A DNA stretch of 9,545 nucleotides from a virus (taxonomy: Duplodnaviria; Heunggongvirae; Uroviricota; Caudoviricetes), in the IMG/VR virus record IMGVR_UViG_2778261641_000014, positions 1-9,545 of that record. The stretch is one strand, 5' to 3'. A program made the translations under genes and the position numbers. Positions 2,557 to 9,545 of this stretch are shown here, piece by piece (position 1 is the first letter of the stretch; each line of letters begins with the position of its first letter). The notes beneath the pieces were generated by a model. That model worked only from the letters and a program-made list of their open reading frames with translations, made no database searches and was not told the DNA's origin.

Positions 2557-3162
2557 ATGAGCAAAGAATTTTACGCAAGACTGGCAGCTATTCAGGAGAA
2601 TCTGAACGCGCCAAAGAATCAGTACAACTCATTCGGCAAATATAAATACAGAAGCTGCGAAGACATTCTTGAAGGCGTTAAGCCGTTACTGAATGGCCTG
2701 TTTTTATCAATCAGCGATGAAGTTGTGTTGATTGGTGATCGGTATTACGTGAAAGCCACGGCAACTATTACCGATGGCGAAAACAGTCATACAGCAACCG
2801 CTCTTGCACGAGAGGAAGAAAGCAAGAAAGGAATGGATTCTGCACAAGTTACTGGAGCTACAAGCTCTTATGCACGCAAGTATTGCCTCAATGGTTTGTT
2901 CGGCATTGATGATGCGAAAGATGCAGATACAGACGAGCATAAACATCAGCAGAGCGCAGCAGCAAAGCAATCAAAACCATCACATACACCTGAACAGGTT
3001 CTAAAAGCATTCACTGACGCAGCATTGCAGAAAAACACCGTGGAAGAGCTTAAACAGGCGTTCGCCAAAGCGTGGAAGATGCTCGAAGGCACACCGGAGC
3101 AGCAAAAAGCGCAGGACGTTTACAACATCAGACGAGACGAATTAGAAGGAGCGGCTGCTTAA
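2557..3162 (+). CDS. erf: Erf-family single-strand annealing protein
   Basis: The translation from ATG 2557 (MSKEFYARLAAIQENLNAPKNQYNSFGKYKYRSCEDILEGVKPLL ... YARKYCLNGLFGIDDAKDADTDE) closely matches P22 Erf as I recall it. The track's TTG start at 2527 is probably an over-extension. Confidence 0.85.
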   Translation: MSKEFYARLAAIQENLNAPKNQYNSFGKYKYRSCEDILEGVKPLLNGLFLSISDEVVLIGDRYYVKATATITDGENSHTATALAREEESKKGMDSAQVTGATSSYARKYCLNGLFGIDDAKDADTDEHKHQQSAAAKQSKPSHTPEQVLKAFTDAALQKNTVEELKQAFAKAWKMLEGTPEQQKAQDVYNIRRDELEGAAA

Positions 3163-3545
3163 TGGCACATTCGATTACTGTAAGACTAAACAAGCCCGCA
3201 AGAGAGTTTCAGGCCGGGGAAAATATCGGATTCAACATCCGTGCTGGCGTTCAGTATTACGATCGCCAGACAAAAAAGAAAGAATGGACAAACTACAGCG
3301 CCGTTGTATTTGCCAAGCCGGGAGCGCAAGCGGATTACTACCGTAGTGTTCTTGTTGAAGGAGGCATTGTAGAAATTACCGGAGAAAACATCAGGGTTGA
3401 TGTTTATCAGGGGCAAAATGGTCAATCAATCACTCTTGAATTACTGAATGCAAAGATTGGATTTGCAACTTCAGGAAACAGCCAACAGCAGCAAAGTAGC
3501 AATCATCAAAATCATCCTGAATACGACGATTCAATTCCCTTCTAG
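3162..3545 (+). CDS. ssb: Phage single-stranded DNA-binding protein (SSB-like, OB fold, acidic C-terminal tip)
   Basis: ATG 3162 overlaps the erf stop (TAATG). The translation ends in the canonical SSB tail ...EYDDSIPF (compare E. coli SSB ...DDDIPF) after a Q/N/S-rich linker. The track start at 3072 is an in-frame over-extension. Confidence 0.8.
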   Translation: MAHSITVRLNKPAREFQAGENIGFNIRAGVQYYDRQTKKKEWTNYSAVVFAKPGAQADYYRSVLVEGGIVEITGENIRVDVYQGQNGQSITLELLNAKIGFATSGNSQQQQSSNHQNHPEYDDSIPF

Positions 3546-3568
3546 ATTAGCAAAATAAGGATTCCATT

Positions 3569-3865
3569 ATGCCAGCGCCTCTGTATGGTGCGGATGACCC
3601 GCGCCGCTGTTCCGGCAATTCCGTATCGGAGGTGCTGGATAAATTCAGAAAAAACTACGACCTGATAATGTCGCTACCGCAGGAAACGAAAGAGGAAAAG
3701 GAATTTCGCCACTGTATATGGCTTGCAGAGAAAGAAGAACGCGAGCGAATTTACCAGACATCAATCCGACCATTCCGCAAAGCCACATATACCCACTTCC
3801 CTGAATATATCGACCCGCGCCTGCGTAATTACCGCTCACGCTATGGCGCTATCAGTAATGACTGA
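3569..3865 (+). CDS. Hypothetical protein (98 aa)
   Basis: RBS AAGGA 3557-3561 before ATG 3569. It is the first ORF after ssb. No family recognised. Confidence 0.55.
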
Positions 3866-3875
3866 GGAATTTACC

Positions 3876-4040
3876 ATGAGAGGACTTGCATACAATCCCG
3901 GCATTCTTCCGGCAGAAATGATTATTCGCCAACGCGTAAAGCCAATGCCATCGAGAGAGGAATTGCTTAAGAGAAATAGTTTCGGTTCTGTTAATGACAA
4001 CAGATATCTGAATGCGATGTGGCGGAGTGGGAAAAAATGA
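3876..4040 (+). CDS. Hypothetical small protein (54 aa)
   Basis: RBS GAGGA 3864-3868 before ATG 3876, in frame with track ORF 3723-4040 (which overlaps the previous gene and is probably over-extended). Its stop overlaps the next start (ATGA). Confidence 0.4.
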
Positions 4041-4519
4041 AACAAATGTCACTAATTGAGATGGATGGATTTCTGAAAGGTAAATGCATCCCAAGTGATT
4101 TAAAGGTTAACGAAACAAATGCTGAATATCTGGTGCGTAAGTTCGGTGAACTTGAATCAAAACTAGAAACGGCGTTGCGTGAGTGTCGTTCTGCTGGAAT
4201 CACGATTGATAACCTTGAGGCTAAATGCGCGAAGATGGCTGCTGAAAATACCTCGCTTAAGCAATCTGAGAAGGAATTTAATGACTTTTGTCGTGAGGAG
4301 TTTAGCGAATGGGAAGATGATGTTACTGAAACCCCAGCCACCGATGCTTTCCTGGCTGAAGTACGGGCGCAGGGGGTAGAGATGTACGCAGATAATCTCG
4401 AAAACGGAGCAGATGACGCAGAACGAGGTGGTTTTGATTATGCCGTTAAGTTTCTACGCAGTGAAGCGTCTGGTGTACGTTTGTTCGCCGACCAGCTTCG
4501 CAAAGGAGGCAACCAGTGA
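4037..4519 (+). CDS. Hypothetical coiled-coil protein with acidic C-terminal half (160 aa)
   Basis: ATG 4037 overlaps the upstream stop. The central region ([12 protein letters not shown] ... [23 protein letters not shown]) looks heptad-like. Track ORF 4019-4519 is the same frame with an earlier start. Confidence 0.55.
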
Positions 4520-4815
4520 CTGTATGTCTTATTGATAAACGTCGACGTGGGCAACAAATACCATCTGTTGAAATGCCGAATCACACATGGTTTTGCGTAC
4601 TTGATATCGATGGTATGGATACGTTGATCGACACTCGTCATTACTGCGATACCGCAACAGCTACTCCTGCAAAAGCAAAGAAAATGGCTGCTCTGATAGA
4701 AAACTGGACTCCACCTGATGGTTGGTGCAATGGGAATGATCGAGATTGGCACGAAAAAATGAAGGGCTATATCTGCGATTTCTTACGTAAATGCAACGGA
4801 TTCAGGGTGATGTGA
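4516..4815 (+). CDS. Hypothetical Cys/His/Trp-rich protein (99 aa)
   Basis: GTG 4516 is preceded by AGGAGG 4505-4510 at 5-nt spacing and overlaps the upstream stop (GTGA). No family recognised. Confidence 0.5.
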   Translation: MTVCLIDKRRRGQQIPSVEMPNHTWFCVLDIDGMDTLIDTRHYCDTATATPAKAKKMAALIENWTPPDGWCNGNDRDWHEKMKGYICDFLRKCNGFRVM

Positions 4816-4816
4816 C

Positions 4817-5290
4817 ATGAACAAGATTGACTATCAGGCACTGCGTGAAGCGGCAGAGAAAGCCGGTGAAGATAAGTGGCAGGCTAAAAAAATAAATGGT
4901 GATTTTTTCGTTATTCGTCACGGTAGTTATACAAGACAGCATGGCTACACATCGTATCAACCCATTGCGGAGATTGATTGTAAGCCAGTCCGGGATTTTG
5001 TTGCCAAGGCTAATCCGGCTACCGTGCTGGAATTACTGGATGAACGGGAAAGGAACCAGCAATACATCAAACTCCGCGATCAGGAGAACGAGGAAATTGC
5101 GCTAACGGTAGGGAAACTGCGTGTTGAGCTGGAAGCCGCAGAGAAGCGCATTGCTGAGCTGCAGTTGCGGGAGGTTGTGCTTCCGCAATGCTATAGCATG
5201 TTGCATCGCGTCGATTTTGACGAGCCTTACCACACTGAAATGGTTTACAGCAGCATCAGGTTCTTGAGGCACTGCACAACGCTGGAATAA
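4817..5290 (+). CDS. Ead/Ea22-like family protein (157 aa)
   Basis: N-terminal ...QALREAAEKA... and central coiled-coil ...AAEKRIAELQ... resemble motifs (QALRE, KRIAEL) that I recall from Ead/Ea22-like prophage proteins. It sits in the ea region between the recombination genes and xis. Confidence 0.6.
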   Translation: MNKIDYQALREAAEKAGEDKWQAKKINGDFFVIRHGSYTRQHGYTSYQPIAEIDCKPVRDFVAKANPATVLELLDERERNQQYIKLRDQENEEIALTVGKLRVELEAAEKRIAELQLREVVLPQCYSMLHRVDFDEPYHTEMVYSSIRFLRHCTTLE

Positions 5291-5321
5291 ACGTCACCGA
5301 AGCAGGTAAAGGAGAGGCATC

Positions 5322-5891
5322 ATGAGCACTATTCCCAAAGAACGTCTGGAACAATTAGCATCTGGAAACGCATGGTATTGCGTTCAAGATGACGAAGCGG
5401 CTGAGCTGGCGCGTATCGCGCTGGCATCGCTCGAAGCGGAGCCATATGGATATGTGCATAAAGCGGCATATGAGAAAACAGGCAGTTGCGGGTTGTCGAA
5501 TGACCGTGAAGCCTATCGATACAGTTCAACTCACGTGGCCGTTTACACCGCACCGCCAGCGCCGGTATCTGTGCCTGCTGCGATGGAAATGGATGATGAC
5601 TTTGACAGCGCGTTTGAACACGGAAAAGCTGTCGGATGGAACGCCTGTCGTGCCGCTATGCTTCAGAGTCAAGGTAATTGCATTAAGGATGGTTGGATAA
5701 GCTGTAGTGATCGAATGCCGGAAGACACCAAAATGTTACTGGCATTTAGTCAAGGTGAAATCGTGGCCGCATATTGGAACTGGGTTGTAAATCCAATTGA
5801 TTACAAAAAATATAGAGCTTTCACGTATTTATCAGGAAATATCTTGGATGACGTAACTCACTGGATGCCGCTACCAGAGCCTCCACTTTGA
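5322..5891 (+). CDS. DUF551-like prophage protein (189 aa)
   Basis: RBS AAGGAGAGG 5307-5315 before ATG 5322. The C-terminal region WISCSDRMPEDTK ... VTHWMPLPEPP matches the DUF551 signature as I recall it. Confidence 0.65.
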   Translation: MSTIPKERLEQLASGNAWYCVQDDEAAELARIALASLEAEPYGYVHKAAYEKTGSCGLSNDREAYRYSSTHVAVYTAPPAPVSVPAAMEMDDDFDSAFEHGKAVGWNACRAAMLQSQGNCIKDGWISCSDRMPEDTKMLLAFSQGEIVAAYWNWVVNPIDYKKYRAFTYLSGNILDDVTHWMPLPEPPL

Positions 5892-5987
5892 AAGCGAAGC
5901 TTATACATATCTTTTACATCAGCAATCTATTGTTAATCTCCAATCAATGTTACGTTGTCATCTCACTCATGCTTTGGAGGTAGTGAT

Positions 5988-6167
5988 ATGTCTTGTCCAA
6001 AATGCGGTTCTGGAAATATTGCAAAAGAAAAAACAATGCGTGGATGGTCTGGTGATTATGTGTGCTGCGATTGCGGATACAACGACTCTAAAGACGCATT
6101 TGGAGAGCGTGGTAAAAACGAGTTTGTCAAAATTAATAAAGATCGCGAAGGCAACGGAAAAAGCTAA
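5988..6167 (+). CDS. Zinc-ribbon miniprotein (60 aa; two CxxC pairs)
   Basis: RBS GGAGG 5976-5980 before ATG 5988. The translation is MSCPKCGSG ... CCDCGY, with a lysine-rich tail. Track ORF 5955-6167 is the same frame with an upstream start. Confidence 0.5.
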   Translation: MSCPKCGSGNIAKEKTMRGWSGDYVCCDCGYNDSKDAFGERGKNEFVKINKDREGNGKS

Positions 6168-6230
6168 TTTATTTATTCATATATGAAAACAATGTAACCA
6201 ATATTCGATTTGAAGAACTGAAAGAACACC

Positions 6231-6254
6231 AAGCCGCCTGATGGCGGTTTTTTT
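6231..6254 (+). terminator. Rho-independent terminator
   Basis: AAGCCGCC / loop TGAT / GGCGGTT followed by a run of 7 T residues (6248-6254). Confidence 0.7.
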
Positions 6255-6268
6255 ATTGGAGACAAGAA

Positions 6269-6613
6269 ATGTCAGATTTGGCTATGAAGGTTTTGAAATG
6301 GCAATCGACTGGCGATGTTGGCATCAGTAGCGCAACTCTTGCCTCAATCGCATGTGGACTGAAAAAGAATATCTATGGTCATAGCTTCGGTGCTCCACAT
6401 GACGCAGCAGATTTCCGACGATGCGTTGCGCTTGTCGAGCAGATTCCAGAAATCAGGGATTCATTCGACAAGGTTGCAAAGCGCGTTCCGGCATTCAAAG
6501 GCATCCTCAACGAATGGGATTCTCTCGTTGCTCTGTTGAAGTCTGAAATGAAGATACACGGAAACAAAGCACCAGAGACTTACAGAAGAATTAGCGAGTT
6601 ACGCAAGGACTAA
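6269..6613 (+). CDS. Hypothetical protein (114 aa) immediately upstream of xis
   Basis: RBS GGAGA 6257-6261 before ATG 6269. It lies between a strong terminator and the excisionase gene. No family recognised. Confidence 0.55.
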   Translation: MSDLAMKVLKWQSTGDVGISSATLASIACGLKKNIYGHSFGAPHDAADFRRCVALVEQIPEIRDSFDKVAKRVPAFKGILNEWDSLVALLKSEMKIHGNKAPETYRRISELRKD

Positions 6614-6702
6614 CCACAGCCTCACACTCGATGAGGCCTGTTCATTTCTCAAGATATCCAGACCTACCGCAATAATACCAACTCAATAAATGGAGATTCC
6701 AA

Positions 6703-7050
6703 GTGGAAGAAGAAATCTTCACTCGTGAAGAGGCAGCATCGTATCTGAAGGTAGACAAAGGCACTATCACGCAGTGGATACGAAGTGGACGACTTCAGGC
6801 CGCAAAGATAAATCCAGATAAACCTAAAAGTCCATATCGCATTTGCAAGTCAGACTGCATTGCGGCGCTTAAGTCTGTGAGACACAATAGCGCGGTGAAT
6901 GCGGTTGATGTGCAGGAGGTTAAAGCATGTCAATCAAACTACGCGGTGGCACGTGGCACTGTGATTTCGTCGCGCCAGATGGATCAAGAGTTAGACGCTC
7001 TCTTGAAACATCGGACAAAAGGCAAGCGCAAGAACTTCACGATCGTCTGA
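6703..7050 (+). CDS. xis: Excisionase (HTH-type Xis / AlpA-like DNA-binding domain), overlapping int
   Basis: GTG 6703 with TGGAGA upstream. The N-terminal FTREEAASYLKVDKGTITQWIRSGRLQAAKI is a typical excisionase helix-turn-helix. The ORF runs 124 nt into int in another frame, as is usual for lambdoid xis-int pairs; the true 3' end is uncertain. Confidence 0.6.
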   Translation: MEEEIFTREEAASYLKVDKGTITQWIRSGRLQAAKINPDKPKSPYRICKSDCIAALKSVRHNSAVNAVDVQEVKACQSNYAVARGTVISSRQMDQELDALLKHRTKGKRKNFTIV

Positions 7051-8087
7051 AAGCAGAAGCGTGGAGAGTAAAAAATCTCGGGGAATCACCGAAAAAGCTA
7101 TTCAAGGAAGCCTGCATACGGTGGCTGCGTGAGAAATCGGATAAGAAGTCCATTGATGATGACAAGAGCATTATATCGTTCTGGATGTTGCACTTCAGAG
7201 AAACCATTCTCTCTGACATAACAACAGAAAAAATAATGGAGGCGGTAGACGGGATGGAAAACCGCCGCCATCGCCTGAACTGGGAGATGAGCCGGGACAG
7301 GTGTTTGCGGCTTGGCAAGCCAGTGCCGGAGTATAAACCAAAGCTTGCAAGCAAAGGAACGAAGACGAGGCATCTGGCAATACTTCGCGCCATTCTCAAT
7401 ATGGCTGTTGAATGGGGATGGCTTGACAGGGCACCCAAAATATCAACACCACGCGTTAAGAATGGACGCATCAGATGGCTTACAGAGGAGGAATCGAAGC
7501 GCCTGTTTGCAGAAATTGCTCCTCATTTCTTCCCTGTGGTCATGTTTGCAATCACGACAGGCCTTCGCCGTTCCAACGTTACAGACCTTGAGTGGTCACA
7601 GGTCGATCTGGATAAGAAAATGGCATGGATGCACCCTGATGAAACAAAAGCTGGCAATGCGATCGGAGTTCCTCTTAACGAAACCGCATGCCAGATATTA
7701 AGAAAACAGCAGGGGCTCCATAAGAGATGGGTATTTGTCCACACCAAACCTGCCTACCGAAGCGACGGAACAAAAACAGCAGCGGTAAGGAAGATGAGAA
7801 CCGACAGCAACAAGGCATGGAAGGGAGCGTTAAAGCGGGCAGGCATTAGCAACTTCCGCTTCCATGACCTGAGGCATACCTGGGCAAGCTGGCTGGTTCA
7901 GTCCGGTGTCTCTCTTCTTGCACTTAAAGAGATGGGAGGATGGGAAACTCTCGAAATGGTTCAAAGATACGCCCACCTTTCAGCCGGGCATCTCACCGAG
8001 CACGCGAGCAAAATCGATGCGATTATAAGTCGCAATGGCACAAATACGGCACAAGAGGAGAACGTAGTTTACTTAAATGTGAGGTAA
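6927..8087 (+). CDS. int: Tyrosine site-specific integrase (P22 Int / DLP12 IntD family), 386 aa
   Basis: Strong RBS AGGAGG 6914-6919 before ATG 6927. Catalytic-domain motifs TGLRRSN ... HDLRHTWASWLVQSGV ... LKEMGGWETLEMVQRYAHL fit the R...HxxR...Y pattern. The gene ends 14 bp before the tRNA 3' end. Confidence 0.9.
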   Translation: MSIKLRGGTWHCDFVAPDGSRVRRSLETSDKRQAQELHDRLKAEAWRVKNLGESPKKLFKEACIRWLREKSDKKSIDDDKSIISFWMLHFRETILSDITTEKIMEAVDGMENRRHRLNWEMSRDRCLRLGKPVPEYKPKLASKGTKTRHLAILRAILNMAVEWGWLDRAPKISTPRVKNGRIRWLTEEESKRLFAEIAPHFFPVVMFAITTGLRRSNVTDLEWSQVDLDKKMAWMHPDETKAGNAIGVPLNETACQILRKQQGLHKRWVFVHTKPAYRSDGTKTAAVRKMRTDSNKAWKGALKRAGISNFRFHDLRHTWASWLVQSGVSLLALKEMGGWETLEMVQRYAHLSAGHLTEHASKIDAIISRNGTNTAQEENVVYLNVR

Positions 8088-8101
8088 CTTATTGATTTAA
8101 A

Positions 8102-8177
8102 TGGTGCCGATAATAGGAGTCGAACCTACGACCTTCGCATTACGAATGCGCTGCTCTACCAACTGAGCTATATCGGC
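8102..8177 (-). tRNA. thrW: tRNA-Thr (anticodon CGU), thrW-type; prophage attachment site
   Basis: The reverse complement of 8102-8177 folds as a cloverleaf: acceptor GCCGATA, D-arm GCTC/GAGC, anticodon loop TTCGTAA (anticodon CGT), T-arm GGTTCGACTCC, 3' ACCA. 76 nt, matching E. coli thrW as I recall it. Confidence 0.9.
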
Positions 8178-8230
8178 CCTGAAAGGACATGTTCACGAAC
8201 GTGAATCACGGTGGACAAGGTTAAAACTAA

Positions 8231-8291
8231 CCGGGCGATGCGTCAATGGCCTTGTGAATCAAATGGCTACTTTTGCATCACCCGGTTTTAT
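8231..8291 (-). terminator. Possible proA terminator: long-range imperfect inverted repeat with flanking T-rich runs
   Basis: CCGGGCGATGC (8231-8241) pairs with GCATCACCCGG (8275-8285) with one mismatch and about 33 nt between the arms; T-rich sequence follows on both strands. The structure is atypical, so confidence is low. Confidence 0.35.
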
Positions 8292-9545
8292 TTACGCACG
8301 AATGGTGTAATCACCAATGCCGATCCACTTGTAAGTGGTCAGTGCTTCCAGCCCCATTGGGCCACGCGCGTGGAGTTTTTGTGTGCTTACCGCCACTTCC
8401 GCACCCAGACCAAACTGGCCGCCGTCGGTAAAACGCGTAGAGGCGTTAACGTAAACAGCGGACGAATCCACTTCGTTAACAAAACGCTGGGCGTTGCGCA
8501 TATCGCGGGTCAGGATCGCATCGGAGTGTTGTGTGCCGTGTTCACGAATATGGGCGATGGCATCGTCAAGATCGCTGACGATTTTGACGTTCAAATCTAA
8601 TGACAGAAACTCATCGTCATACTCTTCGGCTTTAACAGCAACCACCTTCGCAGGGCCTGCCTGCAACTGCGCCAGTGCAGCTGCATCTGCGTGTAATGTC
8701 ACGCCGCTTTCCGCCATTTGTTTGCTTAATGCGGGCAGGAAGCTATCGGCGATGTTTTTATTCACCAGCAACGTTTCAACCGTATTACATGTGCTCGGAC
8801 GCTGAGTTTTCGCGTTGACGATCACTTTTAATGCTTCAGCGATCTCTACACTTTCATCAACGTAAATATGGCATACGCCTATACCACCTGTGATCACCGG
8901 GATTGTCGACTGTTCACGGCACAGTTTATGCAAACCAGCGCCACCACGCGGGATCAGCATGTCGATGTATTTATCCATACGCAGCATTTCACTGACCAGC
9001 GCACGGTCAGGATTATCAATCGCCTGCACGGCACCCGCCGGTAAGCCGCAGGATTTCAGGGCGTCCTGAATCACCGCCACCGTTGCAGCGTTAGTGCGAC
9101 ACGTTTCTTTGCCACCGCGCAGGATCACCGCATTACCGGTTTTCAGGCACAGCGAAGCGACATCAACCGTCACGTTCGGGCGCGCTTCATAAATCACGCC
9201 AATAACCCCCAGCGGTACGCGACGACGCTCAAGACGCAGGCCGCTGTCCAGTACGCTGCCATCGATTACCTGCCCCACCGGATCGGCGAGGTTACACACC
9301 TGGCGCACATCATCGGCAATGCCTTTCAGCCGTGCGGGCGTCAGTGCCAGACGGTCAAGCATCGCTTCGCCAAGGCCATTGGCACGCGCGTCAGCAACAT
9401 CCTGGGCGTTAGCGTTGAGGATGATTTCGCTTTGTGCTTCCAGTTCATCGGCGATTTTTTCCAGCACGCGATTTTTTTCGCGGCTGGAGAGTTGCGCTAA
9501 TTTATACGAGGCTTGCTTCGCGGCAATGCCCATTTGTTCCAGCAT
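8292..9545 (-). CDS. proA: Gamma-glutamyl phosphate reductase (glutamate-5-semialdehyde dehydrogenase), complete, 417 aa
   Basis: Full-length minus-strand ORF whose translation ([38 protein letters not shown] ... [12 protein letters not shown]) is recognisable as E. coli ProA. The start codon is the last three bases of the window. Confidence 0.95.

Follow-up and report, generated by a model that had tools for sequence, protein, structure and literature searches.

We propose, with a probability of about three in four, that the eaG-ORF114-xis region described here belongs to the early-left (PL-type) operon of a lambdoid/P22-like prophage and forms its promoter-distal 'ea'/exo-xis portion, in which accessory genes are carried as exchangeable cassettes. 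The region lies in a stretch of DNA of 9,545 nucleotides (hereafter the window) that is a lambdoid/P22-like prophage inserted at thrW beside proA. As far as sequence and annotation are concerned, the locus is already known. A preliminary description had considered neither of the two proteins encoded between the upstream early genes and xis to be recognisable, but the miniprotein corresponds to EaG of phage P22 (PHROG 2945) and the open reading frame following it, ORF114, belongs to PHROG 1229. Judged from sequence similarity, the three features of the region are therefore named EaG, t'I (the terminator between the two genes) and PHROG 1229, and the odd gaps between the genes are explained by mosaic junctions, including one formed by a dead fragment of xis. 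The features needed for the argument are as follows.

4817-5290, + strand: gene for an Ead/Ea22-like protein
5322-5891, + strand: gene for a DUF551 protein, the upstream neighbour of eaG
5853-6275, + strand: eaG-t'I mosaic module, a single blastn segment of 423 bp that is 96.2% identical to P22 (L001 1495-1916)
5892-5987, + strand: spacer 5' of eaG, 96 bp, kept in the P22 module
5988-6167, + strand: eaG, predicted zinc-ribbon miniprotein (PHROG 2945, E = 2.4e-30, residues 1-58)
6194-6253, no strand assigned: conserved 60-bp block, 59/60 positions (98.3%) identical to lambda 29106-29165, non-coding here
6231-6254, + strand: t'I intrinsic terminator, found by a terminator scan; stem AAGCCGCC/GGCGGTTT, loop TGAT, then seven T
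6269-6613, + strand: ORF114, predicted all-helical protein of 114 aa (PHROG 1229, E = 1.9e-51; HK022 p30-like)
6584-6692, + strand: remnant of the 5' end of a P22-type xis, start codon lost, stop at 6690-6692, filling the gap between ORF114 and xis
6703-7050, + strand: xis, 115 aa, mEp213-type (HTH_17, E = 1.4e-8; PHROG 2907 excisionase, E = 1.2e-52)
6927-8087, + strand: int, tyrosine integrase (Phage_integrase, E = 9e-35)
8102-8177, - strand: tRNA-Thr (CGU), i.e., thrW (ARAGORN, Rfam)
8292-9545, - strand: proA (RefSeq annotation of a near-identical E. coli locus)

Prophage setting and mosaic junctions

On its 5' side, eaG is preceded by genes encoding Erf, an SSB-like protein, an Abc2-type anti-RecBCD protein, the Ead/Ea22-like protein and the DUF551 protein, all on the + strand, and eaG and ORF114 are co-linear with these early-left genes and share their strand. 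Over window positions 5687-9545, which run from the end of the gene preceding eaG to proA, a RefSeq E. coli chromosome is 98.7% identical to the window, and the annotated genes further upstream at that locus are of the same types as those in the window. The types of genes found around eaG and ORF114, together with this RefSeq locus, place the region in the early-left operon of a prophage at thrW. The tRNA is the sole RNA element detected by Rfam in the window.

The junctions between the cassettes can be located from alignments with other phages. The eaG-t'I module shared with P22 starts in the DUF551 gene, of which it includes the last ~40 nt, continues through the 96-bp spacer, eaG and the terminator block, and ends 7 nt into the next gene; it is also found in phages Huey and HZ41 and in 109 E. 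coli genomes. The 96-bp gap previously noted before the miniprotein is this spacer (5892-5987). In P22, the slot of ORF114 is taken by eaC, which also starts with an ATG placed 14 nt after the T-run of t'I, begins with the same 7 nt (ATGTCAG) and ends at the start of the P22-type xis. Beyond these junctions, eaC has no similarity to ORF114, and EaC is a protein of 211 aa.

The far side of the ORF114 cassette is marked by a fragment of xis. The window sequence at 6584-6670 is 85% identical to P22 (L001 2527-2612), which corresponds to the end of eaC plus the first 65 nt of xis, and the translation of 6612-6689 (beginning with NHSLTLDEACSFLKISRPTA) matches residues 3-22 of P22 Xis, although it has no start codon and ends early at a stop codon. 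The same remnant is present in phages 434 and Huey. The xis gene proper starts with GTG at 6703 and overlaps int by 124 nt; its product is of a different type, being 42% identical to P22 Xis. ORF114 had been described as abutting xis, but the GTG lies 89 bp beyond the ORF114 stop codon. We propose that ORF114 would occupy the site at which the xis of lambda directly follows t'I and would have brought with it the dead 5' piece of a P22-type xis.

The t'I terminator and its conserved block

The strong hairpin followed by seven T that had been noted at 6231-6254 was recovered by the terminator scan, which places eight base pairs, five of them G-C, at 6231-6250 and the T-run at 6248-6254. On the + strand, its RNA folds with -13.0 kcal/mol (z = -3.7), and one of 200 shuffled sequences was as stable. 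The P22 record L06296 labels this hairpin t'I and describes its sequence as 'identical to 29106..29165 in bacteriophage lambda'; the same hairpin has also been predicted as t5_lambda (PMC4195576). With at least 95% identity over 60-69 bp, the block containing the hairpin occurs in 152 phage records, including those of lambda, 434, 933W, VT2-Sakai, P22, L, CUS-3 and Sf101. It is found at the int/xis end, or adjacent to it, in all records inspected: just upstream of the annotated xis in lambda, VT2-Sakai, 434, P22, mEp213 and Huey, and beside int in Sf101.

Phages 434 and Huey carry a second and diverged t'I hairpin (GCCGCATCAATGCGGC followed by TTTTCTT) 3' of the xis remnant, after which come a CII box, pI and a lambda-type xis. 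The stem of this second hairpin has changed on both sides, from C-G to A-T, and so remains paired, a pattern that speaks for selection acting on the structure. The t'I hairpin is more than a chance feature, as its block recurs in 152 records and the copy in 434 and Huey keeps its pairing.

Alternatively, the 60-bp block may have been kept only as a recombination scar or 'linker', an orf55-like 3' end left by recent exchange, in which case the hairpin would have no selected role here. In lambda, mEp213 and 434 the block encodes the C-terminus and 3' end of orf55, whose stop codon, TGA, is part of the hairpin loop, whereas in the window, as in P22, it is non-coding and the same frame belongs to no gene. 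The alignment also shows that on either side the flanking DNA changes over to unrelated sequence precisely at the block edges, and a second scar, the dead 5' end of xis, is found 350 bp further on. Against this explanation, the block holds its place at the int/xis end, or adjacent to it, in every inspected record across many lineages, the diverged copy retains its stem through a double change, and the record of 434 gives a literature reference for a terminator in the corresponding position before pI ('terminator, PMID:6305007'). We regard a scar without function as unlikely, and descent from a scar is itself compatible with terminator function.

The element in the window and that of lambda and 434 share 59 of 60 nt, including the whole stem-loop and the T-run, as well as the orientation relative to PL and xis. 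They differ in what follows. In lambda, the block directly abuts the CII site (TTGCGTGTAATTGC), pI and the ATG of xis, whereas in the window ORF114 and the dead xis fragment lie between the block and xis, and no CII box follows the block. Based on the analogy with lambda and P22, we propose that t'I would stop unmodified RNA polymerase arriving from upstream, so that ORF114, xis and int would be reached by antiterminated transcription only, and that the block would in this way keep the excision functions silent in the lysogen.

It has also to be considered that the hairpin may act mainly leftward, ending an antisense RNA initiated near xis and extending back across ORF114, and thereby tuning ORF114, xis and int in the lysis-lysogeny decision. 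The curated P22 record BK000583 annotates this same hairpin as the terminator of aI RNA, and BK000583 as well as L06296 places the C1-activated promoter paI, with C1 sites, inside eaC. The record of phage L has two terminator features annotated at the block, and the minus strand of the window has a weak candidate for an extended -10 element (TGGTATTAT, 6680-6672), which points into ORF114. In the window, however, the paI-bearing eaC is replaced by the unrelated ORF114, in which no equivalent of paI and no C1/CII box was found. The promoter candidate on the minus strand, whose spacer is 19 nt long, does not exceed what chance would give, and on the minus strand the hairpin has a shorter stem of 5 bp (-9.4 kcal/mol, z = -1.7) that is followed by the U-poor tail CUUGGUGUUCUUU instead of a U-run. 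We therefore consider a mainly leftward role to be improbable. Because the P22 record assigns the hairpin to the opposite strand, the t'I element may work in both directions. This strand assignment, and the weak minus-strand candidate that could give an antisense RNA across ORF114, are also observations that speak against the read-through model.

Expression signals around eaG and ORF114

Both genes are preceded by ribosome-binding sites: GGAGG at 5977-5981, 6 nt before the ATG of eaG, and GGAG at 6258-6261, 7 nt upstream of the ATG of ORF114, in agreement with the earlier description of a 114-aa open reading frame at 6269-6613 with its own ribosome-binding site. Promoter-like sequences are lacking. 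A consensus scan of 5200-7200 on both strands found no sigma-70-like promoter (3.1 expected), and a relaxed scan (at least 8 of 12 matches) found none in 5892-5987 or 6255-6268, the two gaps from which transcripts might start; its best + strand candidate, with a 19-nt spacer, is located after ORF114 at 6646-6676. No CII/C1 box (TTGCN6TTGC, with up to one mismatch) is present in 5892-6703, and over the whole window this pattern occurs 10 times, compared with 16.6 expected by chance. The GC contents of ORF114 (46.4%) and eaG (40.6%) are unremarkable beside that of the prophage part of the window (45.0%).

The absence of a promoter or a CII box, the unremarkable GC content and the embedding of the cassettes in the operon lead us to read eaG and ORF114 as accessory genes driven from PL. 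According to this model, eaG and ORF114 would be non-essential 'ea' genes without promoters of their own, and their products would be made after infection or induction, when an RNA polymerase modified by an antiterminator of the N/gp24 type reads through from PL. The read-through from PL, the antitermination and the insulating role of t'I are all inferred by analogy with lambda and P22, since the window does not include PL, nut or the antiterminator.

Lambdoid morons are promoter-gene-terminator units inserted between conserved neighbours. The preliminary description had suggested such a moron-like locus here, that is, that eaG and/or ORF114 form an autonomous unit with its own promoter, expressed in the repressed prophage and conferring a phenotype such as phage resistance or stress tolerance on the lysogen. 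A part of this suggestion holds, as the genes are dispensable and exchangeable cassettes located by int/xis with a strong terminator between them. Their presence or absence varies between otherwise related phages, and ORF114 is an extra gene between two elements, t'I and xis, that are adjacent in lambda. Terminator hairpins are near, with t'I 3' of eaG and, in 434 and Huey, the second hairpin 3' of ORF114, which in these phages is flanked by hairpins on both sides. The gaps in the eaG-ORF114-xis stretch (96, 101, and 89 bp) are wide compared with those of the upstream + strand genes, which are packed tightly with mostly overlapping stop and start codons. In Phytobacter (L021), moreover, the genes ahead of ORF114-xis-int are oriented divergently, and the block must therefore have a local promoter of its own, an observation that also runs counter to the read-through model.

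The part of the suggestion that concerns a unit expressed from the prophage is not supported. Apart from the lack of promoter-like sites in the strict scan on either strand and in both candidate gaps in the relaxed scan, only 14 nt separate the T-run of t'I from the ATG of ORF114. The terminator is upstream rather than downstream of ORF114, whose 3' side in the window has only the weak hairpin at 6619-6637, which is inside the dead xis fragment and has no T-run. Unlike morons, the two genes show no compositional anomaly relative to the prophage, they keep the strand and direction of the operon, and t'I is shared with lambda instead of being specific to the cassette. Neither protein matches a PADLOC defence family: ORF114 gave no match to the defence profiles, and the only match of EaG was to a fragment of a Cas12f zinc ribbon (E = 0.088). 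The preliminary description had also named homology to Ea proteins as an observation that would tell against its own suggestion, and the miniprotein proved to be one of the 'Ea' set of P22. We accordingly judge an autonomous, prophage-expressed unit to be very unlikely. A terminator alone is an insufficient basis for calling a moron, because t'I is an operon-internal element common to lambda that most likely shields xis and int from unmodified polymerase.

EaG and the ORF114 family

EaG was originally described as a 60-aa protein with two CxxC pairs at 5988-6167. The coordinates and the cysteine pairs (C3/C6 and C26/C29) are correct, but the gene has 59 codons plus the stop codon, so that EaG is a protein of 59 aa; it ends in a Lys-rich tail. 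It is identical to P22 EaG at 54 of 59 residues (92%), and the two genes share their genomic position, the 180-nt coding sequence, the ribosome-binding site, the 96-bp upstream spacer, the downstream terminator block and the place in the early-left operon. Four of the five substitutions are inside the Lys-rich tail. The counterpart of eaG in the RefSeq E. coli locus (97.5% identity) is named 'Eag protein', and the P22 record L06296 marks the gene product as 'EaG(?)'. Database searches returned near-identical relatives only, and many of the EaG entries in databases are frameshift chimeras with an overlapping frame (the open reading frame at 5947-6186) or with the tail of orf55. The AlphaFold model of EaG from its single sequence is poor (pLDDT 58).

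Like EaG, the restriction alleviation protein Lar of the Rac prophage is a small phage protein of the CxxC...CxxC type encoded in a recombination/early-left region. The best Pfam hit of EaG is Lar_restr_allev (PF14354; E = 8.1e-5), whose match spans both cysteine pairs, and several representatives of EaG clusters carry a precomputed PF14354 hit. Membership in the Lar family was nevertheless rejected, as EaG scores 23.2 bits against a cut-off of 28.6 for PF14354 and 15.0 bits against a cut-off of 39.6 for TIGR03655. Generic zinc ribbons (HVO_2753 and TFIIB) score on EaG about as well as Lar_restr_allev does, so the match reflects the zinc ribbon and not the family. From its sequence, a Lar-like role for EaG is only a lead, and we regard EaG as a predicted small zinc-ribbon binder.

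ORF114 is matched by PHROG 1229 over its entire length (residues 1-114 on profile positions 1-113 of 116). The gene has 98.7% DNA identity to gene 026 of mEp213, which is annotated as 'similar to HK022p30', and the protein is 100% identical to that of phage Gally. Together, the counterparts HK022 p30, CPT_434_33, mEp213_026 and that of Gally are 96-100% identical to ORF114 in protein sequence, are encoded by genes of 345 nt and are found between the t'I block and xis; in HK022, 434, mEp213 and Gally they are annotated as hypothetical proteins only. The loci of 434 and Huey differ from that of the window in having a lambda-type xis/int with the second hairpin and pI, whereas the window has the mEp213 type. 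With the P22-like type in Phytobacter, ORF114 is found in combination with three types of xis/int and with two different upstream genes, either eaG or an orf55-like gene.

The family extends well beyond these phages. A profile built on ten enterobacterial members retrieved 2,813 cluster representatives (at 50% identity) with E values up to 1e-3, 629 of them with E values up to 1e-10. Among cultured phages, matches are found in Vibrio (152 records), Salmonella, Escherichia, Mannheimia and Arthrobacter phages, to which BFVD adds a member from a Clavibacter phage. Eight residues (W11, S20, P43, D45, D48, R51, C52, and W83) are invariant in 50 diverse members, the motif P.D..D..RC is present in 219 of 221 family members, and the signature W...G.SS...P.D..D..RC...W is near-invariant. 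None of the 50 members matches a Pfam family. The AlphaFold (AF2) model of ORF114 has seven helices with high confidence (pLDDT 93.5, pTM 0.86), and a search of the PDB with this predicted fold found no relative. As several of the invariant residues are at the starts of helices in the model, S20/S21 and D45/D48 may be capping rather than catalytic residues.

A literature search turned up no study of what EaG or ORF114 does. Our best guess is that both proteins bind host targets early in lytic growth. A more specific proposal, that ORF114 represents a never-described large phage family with a new fold that acts early on a specific host target in host takeover or counter-defence, is tentative and in our view rather doubtful. 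The residual interest of the locus is in the function of this family: because its members are widespread and conserved and have no structural assignment, one phenotype or one binding partner would be enough to annotate thousands of phage genes.

Some members of the family carry additional sequence. In P0202, an ORF114 domain follows a CCA-adding enzyme at the C-terminus, but this apparent fusion was discounted: an internal Met precedes the ORF114 domain, which suggests that two neighbouring genes have been read as a single one. The N-terminal CxxC...CxxC domain of three members is not detectably related to EaG, and the remaining extensions match no Pfam family. Around six distant members, no gene family recurs beyond general early-region genes, such as those for Erf, RecT/YqaJ, methyltransferases and RtcB. 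A search for related loci with a narrow alignment gave only four genome loci. A relative with 59% identity is encoded directly before xis-int, and one with 36% identity is the last gene before an 88-aa open reading frame and an integrase, downstream of erf. The recurrent position of ORF114 as the last gene before xis-int might point to a role in the control of excision.

The xis remnant behind ORF114

A remnant of a second excisionase gene lies directly behind ORF114, the 114-aa open reading frame that occupies the eaC position of P22, and a chance-level promoter candidate on the minus strand overlaps the distal end of the remnant.

Window 6584-6692: start-less remnant of the 5' end of a P22-type xis, situated after ORF114 and before the working mEp213-type xis
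Window 6672-6702, minus strand: extended -10 candidate TGGTATTAT; TTGGAA lies 19 nt upstream of it

The remnant reads NHSLTLDEACSFLKISRPTA... and is followed by a stop codon. This remnant is also found 3' of ORF114 in phages 434 and Huey, which indicates that the ORF114 cassette was formerly joined to a P22-type xis. The start position of lambda xis is also where ORF114 and eaC begin, and the ribosome-binding context of lambda xis, TTGCGGAGAC...ATG (L004, minus strand, 1380-1410), resembles the context that follows the T-run in the window, TTGGAGAC...ATG (6254-6271). The minus-strand -10 candidate, which is at chance level in a relaxed scan, is directed to the left, into the remnant of xis and on into ORF114, the same direction as that of the aI RNA transcribed from paI in P22.

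The ORF114 family in other genomes

A relative of ORF114 stands next to a P22-like xis in a Phytobacter genome.

L021 (Phytobacter massiliensis) 2962-4834: ORF114 (59% identical), then P22-like xis and int

The genes upstream of ORF114 there are on the opposite strand, and ORF114-xis-int looks like a separate unit with its own putative promoter. Some Stx phages (Stx2 phage 86 and Stx2a_F723, matches H99 and H100) have ORF114 cut down to its first 56 codons, a short form that corresponds to PHROG 8038; this shortening suggests that the gene is dispensable and decays.

Several longer metagenomic members of the family share a similar C-terminal tail (...RRAA, ...KRAA, ...RQAA or ...RKVA).

P0114, P0115, P0116, P0112, P0128: ORF114-family proteins with this tail

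P0202 (558 aa) reads as a CCA-adding enzyme (PolyA_pol and HD) whose C-terminal part is a domain of the ORF114 family, and in L009 (149-1591) a gene for the RNA ligase RtcB lies 3.4 kb from another member. These two observations may hint at a link of the family to tRNA repair, or may be coincidence.

Paired hairpins and EaG variants

ORF114 in 434 and Huey is bracketed by two hairpins resembling the terminator t'I.

Phage 434 (L013) 1538-1560 and 1981-2003: t'I-like hairpins
Huey (L006) about 3370-3400: t'I-like hairpin region

The second hairpin of both phages, GCCGCATCAATGCGGC, carries a compensatory pair change relative to the first copy, which in 434 has a stem mismatch (GGAGG instead of GGCGG).

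Many "variants" of the miniprotein EaG in public protein databases are frameshift chimeras, some joining EaG to an overlapping 79-aa frame (the +1 frame across eaG, window 5947-6186) and others to the C-terminal frame of orf55, VTNIRIEELKEHQAA (window 6194-6241), which extends into the hairpin.
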